Positions 37,096 to 40,000 of a stretch of DNA of 50,511 nt are shown piece after piece. Made by a program: the position numbers and the translations under genes. This DNA comes from a bacterium. Its GTDB lineage: Bacteria > UBA8248. The notes beneath the pieces are model-generated. The model was not told where the DNA came from and did not search any database. It saw only the letters and a list, made by a program, of their open reading frames with translations. The DNA lies in contig CBDBZY010000004.1 in assembly GCA_965213685.1 (NCBI GenBank), forward strand, positions 1 to 50,511, read 5' to 3'. Position 1 is the first letter of the stretch, and every line of letters starts with the position of its first letter.

Positions 37096-40000
37096 ATGGA
37101 GAGCTACCAGCCCACGCCGAGGTTCCTCCACACCTCGGCACAAGTGGAAAGTAAAATTGTAGTGTACAGCGGACGGACGGTAGACGATGTAGTAGAGAAG
37201 AGGAAGGGCTTGGCCTCCATCGTGGAGGTCTTCCATCCCCACAGCGAGCACTGGGAGGCCAAGCAATCCACTGGACAGACCCCAGCACCAGGGCTGTGGG
37301 GTGCAGCCAGCGCAGTAGTCAACGATCAGCTGTATTCGTACGGAGGGAGAGATGGTGACTGCGACTTCCTTCATTCACTGCACCAGCTGAGCGCCAAGAC
37401 CTACGAGTGGAGGGAACTGAGCGCTAAAGGTCCTGCATCACCAATGCCCAAATGGGATGCGGCAATGGTCGCCTGCGGGAACGGTCTAGCGCTCTTTGGA
37501 GGCTACGGCGTACCACACGGCCCTACCCAGCGCGTGTTGGGAGGCTACGGCGTACCACACGGCCCTACCCAGCGTGCGGGGTCATCATTCATCAAGAATA
37601 CCCCCGGGTCAGACGGCAGCGGGTGGACCAATGAGTTCCACATCTACCACCTCAATGAAGGTACGCATACATGTACAACAATGACTAGAATTTGCAGCTT
37701 GCCTTTGGTTGTTTGTTGTTTGGGTATACATTACCCCAGCTCTTCCCAACTCTGTTGGCTTTAGGCTTTTGAGGTGCAGGTTTTCCCTAGGGTGTAGTTC
37801 TGGTGTTTGTGGTGGATGTATTCTGAAGCCACAATCACTAGGGCTCACCTTGGGGTACTTAAACCAGTGGTGCTAGAGCAGCTTGTACATGTACATTCAT
37901 GGTGCTGATGAGAGGCAACCAGCTTGAAGCAGCTGTCTGCCATTGCCTAGCTTGCTCTGGCCCACCTGATTTGATCATGTACATACGTGCACACTGTACT
38001 CACTGAACTGCACTACAACATGTATAACACTTTTGCATTGATGGCTCCCTGTAGCTAACGAGTGTAGTACTGCTATTCCCATTCCTCATTCTGCTATGGC
38101 ATGTTAGCACTCCCCACACTGCAGGTGTGTGGAGCTCCCCTGCCACCACTGGAGAGAGACCTCCTCCGTGTTGTGGCTTCTCCCTCACCTCCATAGACAA
38201 GAGGAGGGCTCTCCTGTTTGGAGGGTTCAATGGAGAGCAGGGCAGGATGAATGATGTGTACATCATTGACCTACAGAGTATGGTATGTGAGCTGATGAAT
38301 TATTGATTGCTGGTACAGCATATGATGTAGTACATGTATCTTGTACATATTGGTTACAGAGCCCAGACAGACATGTGTGAGTGTTGTATGGGCTCATACA
38401 TGTGTGTCTGGGCTGTGCAAGTTATTTGTTGCCAGTTGAGGCTGGTATAGGGTTGCAGCTCGGTTTGCAGTAGTACAAGAGATATGACTAATGGGTTTGC
38501 ATTGTGTAGCAAGTTCCAAAAATAGTGTCAAGATTTGTCCCTGCAGCGTTATTTATTGCACTAGCCTTAACTCCAGTGGCCAATGTGTTATCTGGTACAC
38601 TGTGTTGTGCATTGTGGATTGAGTGCATGTAGTATTGCTATGGCCAGTACAGCTGTCCTGGTAGTGAACTACAGTGTGCATACTGCAGCAGATGGTGACA
38701 TGTGATAGTGTAATGAATGGTTAGCTTTATGCAGCATATATTGGGTCAAAGGTGAAATGGGAGGCACCTGGAGTGGTGGCTAGTGTGTGTGAGTGGCAGT
38801 AGAAAGGTTGGTAGTTGGAATGTTGGTGGAGAGGCAGTTTTCCTTTCCTTGTTAAAGCTTATTGATATGTGCAGGGTTTGATACACTTGACGTGCAATAT
38901 GGCCTGTGGCAGTGGATGGGAAGAGAAGTTGGTCTCTGTTTGTGTAGTTATATGCTGAACTGTCTGTCACTGCAGCACTGGACCAAACTCAACAAGTCAG
39001 GAGGAGGACCTTGGCCAGAGGAGAGGTTGGGGCATGCTGCTTGCTGTCTGAACTATGGCCAGCAACACCCTCAACTGCTGGTCACTGGGGGATCGAACGG
39101 ACAGCACAGGGTACAGGGAGATGCCTGGATTCTGGATGTGGACAGTGGGAGGTGGAGGAAGGTGAGGAGGAAGTGTAGCTGTACTGTACACTCTGTGATG
39201 GTTACTATACACATAGCATAGTCCTGTGGTAGTGCTTTGGCTGATTGAGTGCATCAGATAAAAGAGGTAGTGAAGTGCTGCAATGTAGCCTGAGACAATG
39301 CTGTGGCATTGTATGCCTGTATGTATGTAGACAGTGTGAGTTATGTTACATGTGCATAGCACATGCACTGGGTAGTGCTGAACACACTGTCTGTGTAACA
39401 CTGCAGTTATCATCTCTCCCCTCCAGGTGAGGGACACTCTACGGCCTCGCCGGCGACACTCAGCATGTGCCATACAGATTGGCCCCAATTTAACAGAGGT
39501 CATCATGTTTGGAGGGCGGGATAATCTTTTGACTGAACTGGCTGATACAACTGTACTGCAGTTTAGTGAGTGGTGTGGGGTTTGTAGAATGTGTGTTGAC
39601 GAGGGAGGGGGAGAGGGAAAGTGTGGGAAAGGGGAGATGGGGAGGAGATGGGGAGGAGAGAGTAGGGACGGGAGGCATGAGGAGGAGTGGGAGGGAAGGG
39701 AGCAGGTCATGTGATGAGCTATTAGCACTGCCTTACATCAGTAAATAACTAGGTGAGGAGCCACCTGTTAAATCAGGCTTAGTTGCATTGCCTTGCCTTG
39801 GATTTGTAAGCCAAGCAGCTGGGCTGCCTCGGTAGCTGAGTTGGTAGAGCACTGGCCTAGACAGCCAGTGGTTGGTGGCAGGTTTGAATCTCGTTCGGGG
39901 CAGCTCAGTGTTGTCTGCCTTGGATGTGTGCCATTTATGATTTGAGCATGGACATACATGTATGTACACATTCCAATTAGTGTGCATTAAATGATGTTTT

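Follow-up and report, generated by a model that had tools for sequence, protein, structure and literature searches.

We analyzed a window of 50,511 nucleotides (contig CBDBZY010000004.1, positions 1 to 50,511 of the forward strand; "the window" denotes this whole stretch), which carries two paralogous genes encoding Kelch propellers. The DNA is eukaryotic and has GT-AG introns. In the region 38125–39565 of the downstream gene, termed copy 2, the Kelch exons differed from those of the upstream gene, termed copy 1, more than the introns between them did, and most of the amino acid replacements fell on a small set of loop positions. We lean toward the explanation that the copies are old paralogues in which gene conversion homogenizes the propeller scaffold and the introns, while the loops of the ligand face are kept or driven apart by selection. 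Under this model, two old paralogous KLHDC2-like six-bladed Kelch modules, each forming the N-terminal and presumably ligand-sensing part of a different signaling protein, would have been homogenized by gene conversion or homologous exchange over a 3.2-kb stretch that takes in the framework codons and four introns, from the middle of exon 1 up to the (CT)n tract of intron 5. The residues of the ligand face would stay or become different, as conversion there would be selected against and/or new variants would be favored. The outcome would be islands of near-saturated divergence, adjacent silent sites included, amid a divergence of about 1–3%. The same architecture recurs across a large family on other public contigs.

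Self-comparison of the window placed copy 1 approximately 29 kb upstream of copy 2: positions 8145–10926 matched 37100–39938 with 90% identity and 10922–11634 matched 40042–40809 with 88% identity, and the paralogue of 38125–39565 was 9118–10564. A translated search detected no Kelch copies in the window beyond these two. In both copies, which lie on the plus strand, the five Kelch exons were open and had canonical GT-AG splice sites. Exon 1 of copy 2 (37096–37660), which begins with ATG, encoded blades 1–3; it and exon 1 of copy 1 (8126–8669) matched the Pfam model PF24681 (KLHDC2/KLHL20/DRC7 Kelch) with 66.9 and 62.4 bits, respectively, above the cut-off of 50. Exon 2 alone (40.3 bits) and exon 3 alone (26.6 bits) scored below this cut-off, as expected of single blades, and exon 4 alone gave no match to the model. 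Six GG/SG doublets were visible in the spliced translation, and KLHDC2 was the nearest solved protein by sequence (PDB, E=1.4e-14).

Differences between the copies were counted on a MAFFT pair alignment. Exon 2 (38125–38282 in copy 2 and 9118–9275 in copy 1; blade 4), exon 3 (38976–39161 and 9975–10160; blade 5), exon 4 (39427–39565 and 10426–10564; blade 6), and exon 5 (40223–40315 and 11076–11168; the closing strand and a linker, ending in phase 1) differed at 18/158, 9/186, 15/139, and 2/93 nt, respectively. The corresponding values were 15/448 for intron 1, 9/693 for intron 2 (38283–38975 in copy 2), 3/265 for intron 3 (39162–39426), and 7/380 for intron 5 (40316–40875, homologous to copy 1 until approximately 40695); introns 2 and 3 of copy 1 lie between its exons listed above. 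An initial annotation of this DNA had counted intron 3, exon 3, and exon 4 by hand and had noted nine amino acid changes in exon 4; all of these numbers proved exact, and the six motif pairs that it quoted were present in the copies. Its claim that the exons diverge faster than the introns was also borne out, with 42/483 nt in exons 2–4 against 12/958 in introns 2 and 3 (Fisher p=1.4e-11). The intron that it had chosen for the contrast, intron 3, was the least diverged of the introns, which spanned 1.1% to 3.4%, but the contrast held when all tract exons (50/704) were set against all introns (58/2297; p=1.6e-7).

The exonic differences were strongly clustered. Thirty-six of the 50 had a neighbor within 3 nt, whereas 5000 shuffles gave 17.6 on average and never more than 31; the intronic differences were unclustered (5 of 49; shuffle mean, 5.7). 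The exons showed 22 transitions and 28 transversions versus 34 and 15 in the introns (p=0.015), and, among the 32 replaced codons, 10 contained two changes and 2 contained three. The statement in the initial annotation that every difference lay in an amino acid-changing codon was correct for exon 3, where all nine differences fell within six replaced codons, but not for exon 4, where 3 of the 15 nt were silent (Leu CTT/TTA and Phe TTC/TTT); exon 2 contained two further silent codons (AGA/AGG and CAA/CAG). Silent differences were found in 4 of 39 conserved codons beside replaced codons and in 1 of 164 elsewhere (p=0.005). By the Nei-Gojobori method, the nonsynonymous (dN) and synonymous (dS) divergences of exons 2–4 were 0.098 and 0.073, respectively, giving an omega of 1.34 (Fisher p=0.70), and K of introns 2 and 3 was 0.0126. 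Relative to these introns, dN was 7.8 times higher (p=6e-11) and dS was 5.8 times higher (p=5e-4); the ratio of dN to the intron rate was 3.8–7.8 (p<2e-8). Since dS was raised too, the contrast between exons and introns overstates classical positive selection here. Taken together, these features point to near-saturated patches that drag adjacent silent sites with them, a pattern expected where segments have a history longer than, or separate from, that of the sequence around them; it is not what point mutations fixed within a time window of 1–3% divergence would give.

Two other causes of the contrast were considered. Special constraint on the introns was rejected because the silent sites of the framework were as uniform as the introns (1/164 against 1.1–3.4%), and a search against Rfam for functional RNAs that might account for intron conservation gave only a tRNA-like element in intron 4. 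GC-biased gene conversion as a driver was unsupported, as no such bias was seen (21 weak-to-strong versus 14 strong-to-weak changes, p=0.31).

The high-identity tract measured 3.2 kb (8542–11548 against 37531–40695), with an intron identity of about 97–99%. Within exon 1 of copy 2, the initial 435 nt (37096–37530) differed from copy 1 at 127 of 391 aligned sites, compared with 6 mismatches in 128 sites at 37531–37660. In this 5′ part of exon 1, dS was 1.13 and dN was 0.32 (omega, 0.28), which is an old divergence under purifying selection; the copies are thus old paralogues rather than young duplicates, and, because of this high dS, the low divergence of the introns marks a homogenized tract and not a recent duplication. 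The 5′ edge of the tract fell in register within the coding sequence of exon 1, where copy 2 has a 42-nt tandem duplication (37495–37574) that is in frame and was represented by a gap in copy 1. Its two units, 37495–37532 and 37537–37574, were identical at 37 of 38 nt (97%) with a spacing of 42 nt and added 14 residues; the duplication was detected by a general repeat search and was absent from the output of Tandem Repeats Finder. It is probably the scar of a slightly misaligned recombination junction. The 3′ edge lay in intron 5, at the start of a CT-rich/(CT)n tract (about 40737–40873 in copy 2, followed by the acceptor AG at 40874–40875), beyond which the exons were unrelated, encoding a kinase in copy 1 and a GTPase in copy 2. 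The other duplicated blocks flanking the genes were only 74–93% identical. The Kelch tract is therefore a homogenized island inside an older duplication.

We then located the replacements on the propeller. Loop positions were defined by motif as the two residues after the blade-start Arg/Cys and the eight residues after each GG, before counting but after the alignment had been viewed. In exons 2–4, 18 of the 25 replacements fell within these 30 of 161 positions (p=7.5e-11), in agreement with the clustering after the blade-start Arg/Cys and GG that the initial annotation had described. GG+1 and Arg/Cys+1 differed between the copies in all three blades of exons 2–4, and GG+6 differed in two of them. 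Over the 30 loop positions together, the two copies gave a pN of 0.355 and a pS of 0.146 (pN/pS, 2.4; p=0.16). Seven replacements lay outside the loops. Four formed a contiguous patch in blade 4, with two in the A-B turn and two in strand B; the remaining three affected an A-B turn residue of blade 6, a strand D residue of blade 3, and the residue at position −2 from the blade-6 Arg. The replaced sites carried a net charge of −2 in copy 1 and +8 in copy 2, a shift of +10 in the direction that the initial annotation had reported.

The structural mapping was transferred from a model of P0131, a 32%-identical Kelch-kinase protein of the sponge Ephydatia muelleri, which is the closest named full-length relative (P0156 is a longer form). 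The pLDDT of this model was 80–97 over blades 1–5 and about 50–60 in blade 6, and its best PDB matches were KLHDC2 entries (TM 0.84). The raw labels assigned the 31 replacements of the tract to the B-C loop (14), the D-A loop (7), strands (6), the A-B turn (2), the C-D turn (1), and the linker (1). Because the model was poor in blade 6, this blade was relabeled by its Kelch motif on inspection; the raw labels had counted three loop changes there as strand, and one change in the A-B turn was moved from the D-A loop. After relabeling, 17 replacements were assigned to the B-C loop, 6 to the D-A loop, 3 to strands, 3 to the A-B turn, 1 to the C-D turn, and 1 to the linker. By propeller topology, the B-C and D-A loops share one face. 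The variable residues thus appear to occupy one face of the propeller, as the initial annotation had supposed, when placed on the homologue model. By the raw labels, the D-A and B-C loops as a whole were only modestly enriched (21 of their 117 positions, compared with 9 of the 85 others), and the signal lies in sub-positions adjoining the Arg and the GG. KLHDC2, 3, and 10 are described as binding substrate on their top sides via an Arg-Ser-Arg trio (PMC11568203), and Arg236 and Arg241 of KLHDC2 are reported to hold the carboxylate of the ligand (PMC12169847). In our alignment with KLHDC2, Arg236 corresponded to GG+1 and Arg241 to GG+6, and the serine of the trio followed the Arg of the next blade. 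We take this serine to be Ser269. Judged by this alignment, the variable residues of the window copies would be the positions that KLHDC2 uses for holding its ligand.

The main alternative to conversion with protected loops is a recent single copying of the 3.2-kb module, with about 1–3% neutral divergence, followed by strong positive selection on point mutations, mostly in copy 2, whereby diversifying or directional selection at ligand-contact codons moved the face of copy 2 toward positive charge. The excess of dN over introns 2 and 3, the concentration of 18 of 25 replacements at contact-type positions, and the charge shift of +10 are all in its favor, as is the fact that conserved residues within the patches mostly have identical codons. 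It requires, however, an omega of ~30 or more at loop codons (pN of 0.355 against an intron K of ~0.013), and 12 of the 32 replaced codons carry two or three changes. Silent changes concentrated beside replacements are predicted by conversion-protected islands but not by selection on single point mutations; neither this concentration nor the raised exonic dS would follow from a recent copy, and the transition/transversion ratio of the exons was unlike that of the introns. We regard a recent copy as rather unlikely, even with the points from the related sequences that are described below.

Database searches revealed a large number of relatives. A search with exon 1 of copy 2 yielded 3708 representatives at E<=1e-3 and 478 at E<=1e-10, the 11 top matches being single-exon open reading frames (ORFs) that run on into intron 1. 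The exon-3 ORF matched 163 of 164 candidates, and several of these come from contigs of equal length, which suggests gene clusters. A family alignment was made from 120 listed of the 163 matches, of which 119 cover the exon. Among these 119 relatives, the entropy was 2.99 bits at the D-A pair, 2.18 bits at the B-C eight, and 0.91 bits in the framework; 106 distinct B-C loops and 115 distinct loop combinations were observed, and five of the six differences between the window copies in exon 3 lay at positions that are hypervariable in the family. The exon-4 ORF had eight foreign relatives, whose B-C loops varied in sequence and in length. Mean pairwise identity was 15.6% in this loop but 91% in the strand that follows it, and it stood at 65% where the translation ran on into intron 4. 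This variation in loop length is a further point against a recent copy that was changed by point mutations. Copy 1 and its close relative P0003 differed at 14 of 181 residues, mainly at loop positions as judged by eye without a tally.

When longer proteins were searched with exon 1 by a word-based method, no closely related annotated protein of full length was recovered. In a scan of prokaryotic genome contigs, the sole match was a Kelch repeat of an Anaerolineales metagenome-assembled genome (L001, 6001–6165; 34% identity to exon 3), which is an ordinary bacterial Kelch protein and not a family member. Full-text searches of one library of papers, with supplementary files outside their scope, returned no description of such a Kelch family.

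The clustering of the differences, the many codons with multiple changes, and the silent changes adjoining them could also be produced by templated or targeted diversification of the loops, that is, by micro-conversion from other family members or by loop-directed mutation, with or without selection, in which clusters of changes, silent ones included, arise in single events. The length variation of the B-C loop among relatives agrees with such a process, as do the many possible donors in a large family, several of them apparently on one contig, and the occurrence of the same B-C loop with different D-A pairs, e.g., in P0180 and P0187. On the other hand, no donor for the loops of copy 2 was found among the 119 exon-3 relatives (best, 3/8), a search set that lay outside the source genome, and donors would have to match the framework exactly at silent sites. 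Conversion without selection should, moreover, homogenize the loops and not leave 106 distinct ones among 119. We therefore consider templated diversification improbable as the main cause.

Copy 2 has unusual residues at positions that are conserved in the family, such as Gln for the usual Leu at GG+8, and these, together with the 14-residue in-frame duplication in its blade 3 and the abundance of repeats in the window, might suggest that the pattern is not functional and that copy 2 is decaying or chimeric, or that a repeated gene family was mis-assembled. Against this, each copy can be read without interruption through its five Kelch exons and its effector exon, with canonical splice sites. 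Decay could not raise exonic divergence above the intron rate, framework codons are spared by the differences, and the same pattern is seen in independent contigs; the different flanks and effector exons also mean that the copies are not collapsed alleles. Such an origin is, in our view, very improbable.

Every reading requires that loop diversity be selected for, since relaxed constraint could at most bring divergence to the neutral rate. The initial annotation had attributed the pattern to diversifying selection on a recognition surface. The location of the replacements in the loops and the hypervariability of the family are in line with this idea, but a dN/dS above 1, which such selection would be expected to leave, did not emerge at a significant level either in exons 2–4 or at the loop positions; in addition, exonic dS was 5.8 times the intron rate, the genes proved to be old with a homogenized tract, and 7 of 25 replacements were off the loops. 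Escape of the loops from homogenization fits the data better than exons mutating faster than introns, and we infer that conversion acted as the homogenizer and that selection held the loops apart. Several observations weigh against this explanation. Only two DNA copies were compared, and conversion was deduced from the pattern and not from a tree or a breakpoint test. Intron divergence was weakly heterogeneous (chi-square p=0.095; intron 1 versus introns 2 and 3, p=0.011), and multiple tracts were not shown. The identical stretches between the patches of exon 2 are only 9–21 nt, shorter than usual conversion tracts, so that preservation of the patches would need many events or patchy repair. 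The dN/dS ratio was not significantly above 1, more than a quarter of the replacements in exons 2–4 (7/25) lay off the binding loops, and the structural mapping relies on a 32%-identical homologue whose blade 6 was poorly modeled. Finally, in exon 3, the B-C loop of copy 1 matched relatives at up to six of eight positions and that of copy 2 at no more than three; this, together with a by-eye comparison of eight exon-4 sequences, suggests that the exon-3 and exon-4 loops of copy 2 are derived, which favors new change on the copy 2 lineage and thus a recent copy.

Each Kelch module appears to be spliced to an effector exon through a 31-residue linker, after which a kinase or a GTPase exon follows; both effector exons are in phase with exon 5. 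The effector exon of copy 1 (11638–12899, with a CT-rich tract upstream) matched Pfam Pkinase (1.2e-36; 126.9 bits against a cut-off of 31.7) and PK_Tyr_Ser-Thr (5.9e-34). Its closest solved relatives were the plant receptor kinase CERK1 (1.1e-26), LysM-RLKs, and TNNI3K, and it appears to encode a TKL (IRAK-RLK-like) protein kinase. Approximately seven tandem ten-residue units of the SSPT[HY]HITAL type preceded the stop at the end of the kinase ORF (about 12720–12899, plus strand) and may be either a coding tail or read-through into an intron.

The effector exon of copy 2 (40876–43115) appears to encode a P-loop GTPase of the Roc type with a COR-like tail, although the Roc-COR assignment is weak: Pfam Roc scored 26.7 bits (cut-off, 27), Ras scored 24.1 bits (cut-off, 21.6) with no single stretch passing alone, and NCBIfam small_GTP scored 21.6 bits against a cut-off of 42.5. 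P-loop and DxxG motifs were visible with a long low-complexity insert between them. This insert, at about 41330–41500 on the plus strand, is rich in Pro, Ser, Thr, and Ala and may explain why the Roc and Ras profiles match piecewise. Language-model features gave 0.97 to Roc and COR-A clusters, which serves as a lead only, and neither a Pfam COR match nor a PDB sequence match was obtained for this exon. No hydrophobic N-terminal segment was obvious by eye in the Kelch proteins, for which no signal-peptide predictor was run. This and the kinase and GTPase outputs suggest an intracellular recognition role, which is possibly immune-like.

Compared with copy 1, intron 4 of copy 2 (39566–40222) had an insertion of approximately 100 nt; it also carried a (CT)n tract at about 40094–40220 that reaches the acceptor. 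Intron 4 of both copies contained a tRNA-like element (10813–10892 and 39825–39904, plus strand). Five others were found on the minus strand (18398–18471, 21799–21874, 22520–22594, 32472–32547, and 45207–45282), seven in all; some had odd anticodons (CTA), and one was confirmed as tRNA by Rfam (35.6 bits). They are probably the heads of tRNA-derived short interspersed elements and not tRNA genes.

Sixty-two forward ORFs downstream of the two genes were scanned against Pfam, and the only matches were a weak one to a Death domain and a weak one to Zip. The former was in the ORF at 19727–20398 (plus strand; E=4.6e-4, below cut-off), which had near copies at 23292–23720 and 48446–48826; these three repeats, with 90–96% identity, are located 3′ of the two Kelch genes and may be 3′ exons of them. 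On the minus strand, ORFs matching Mind-bomb type domains (MIB_HERC2 and SH3_15) and an ankyrin-repeat ORF were found at 3537–4184, 28202–29272, and 25240–26226. The Mind-bomb type ORFs lay inside an older duplicated block, in which 2934–7357 matched 29501–35406 with 74–90% identity, suggesting that a duplicated E3-ligase-like gene adjoins each Kelch gene.

The segment 15426–17208 was open in all three forward frames (ORFs of 478–564 residues), contained repeats offset from one another by ~138 and 274 nt, and matched nothing in Pfam; it resembles a minisatellite or an array of low complexity. Strand asymmetry was extreme at 16001–18000 (GC skew, −0.46; AT skew, +0.69). A further element of 1–3 kb occurred 4–5 times in the window with 77–88% identity: 967–2935 matched 43755–45535, and 1–1402 matched parts of 15141–15877, 17307–18448, 22036–22571, and 45436–46396. 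The window is a mosaic of nested duplications in which an identity of about 97–99% was found only in the Kelch tract.

In known families of diversified innate receptors, the sensors are LRR, Ig, SRCR, fibrinogen, and WD40 domains. If our explanation is true, the Kelch propeller would join these sensors, and the locus would provide a clear animal case of concerted evolution and loop diversification within one 3-kb tract, whose edges are visible as an in-frame junction duplication and a microsatellite. It would also suggest that, in early-branching animals, sensor-effector proteins arise through the exchange of a single variable sensing module between a kinase and a GTPase output. Arg+1, Arg+2, and GG+1 to GG+8 of each blade would be testable positions for ligand specificity. 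The locus also provides a caution in that the exon-intron comparison, taken by itself, overstated classical positive selection. As a broader and tentative proposal, which we hold to be less probable than the explanation of the tract itself, the genes may belong to an undescribed large family of intracellular animal receptors, probably of a sponge, in which the Kelch propeller serves as the variable recognition module, the loops are individually unique, the scaffold and introns are kept uniform by gene conversion, and exon exchange joins the module to TKL kinases, Roc-COR GTPases, and possibly death domains.

By sequence and fold, the closest known proteins are the C-degron receptors KLHDC2, KLHDC3, and KLHDC10, which are described as six-bladed with top-side binding (PMC11568203, PMC12169847). 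The anchor residues of KLHDC2 lie at GG+1, GG+6, and Arg+1, i.e., at positions that vary between the window copies. Inspection of blades 4–6 revealed the R/F-S-R carboxylate anchor trio, as the motif is given in PMC11568203, in neither copy; an R...K...S arrangement across blades 2 and 3 was present in copy 1 only and was absent from copy 2 and P0003. The effector ORFs gave no Pfam match to a BC-box/SOCS domain, for which no dedicated BC-box search was run. Because the blades 4–6 lack the Arg-Ser-Arg trio and no BC-box was found, the window proteins do not appear to be ligase receptors of this kind, which are moreover single conserved genes and not, as here, a large variable family.

Coding sequences that outpace their introns have been reported elsewhere. 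In recently duplicated trappin paralogues, the coding sequence evolves several-fold faster than introns and flanks, and in armadillo and pig dS was also accelerated "by unknown mechanisms" (PMC2831891); snake-venom genes with "accelerated evolution" are treated in the habu genome paper (PMC6062510). Those genes encode small secreted effectors, whereas the pattern here concerns defined loops of an intracellular propeller and comes with the edges of a conversion tract. The purple sea urchin has Sp185/333 immune gene clusters in which microsatellites flank the duplicated segments and were proposed to promote duplication and/or gene conversion (PMC3091723). The Kelch genes resemble the Sp185/333 genes in being clustered and similar yet diverse, with a tract that ends in (CT)n and a second (CT)n in intron 4, but the proteins are unrelated and the diversity of Sp185/333 lies in mosaic element patterns, not in the loop positions of a folded domain. 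A parallel also exists in the major histocompatibility complex, where introns are homogenized alongside diverse exons. The LRR-ROCO candidate immune receptors of brown algae combine a Roc-COR GTPase with a variable repeat sensor that exon shuffling has diversified (PMC11378527); there the sensor is an LRR in algae, and here it is a Kelch propeller in animals with a weak Roc-COR assignment.

The closest known phenomenon is that of the HNWD NLRs of Podospora anserina (het-d and het-e), whose WD40 propellers are kept uniform by concerted evolution except for hypervariable, selected surface positions (PMC12222747). The two systems differ in that the propeller is a fungal WD40 domain there and an animal Kelch domain here, homogenization acts among repeats within a gene there and between paralogous genes, introns included, here, and the central domain is a NACHT there, while a kinase or a Roc-type GTPase is present here. 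No NACHT or NB-ARC match to Pfam was found in the ORFs scanned, and the Kelch proteins are not NLRs because they have no NACHT domain. They share with the HNWD proteins a scaffold that is uniform between copies with hypervariability at defined surface positions, as seen in the two copies and the family, and an intracellular sensor joined to a signaling module.

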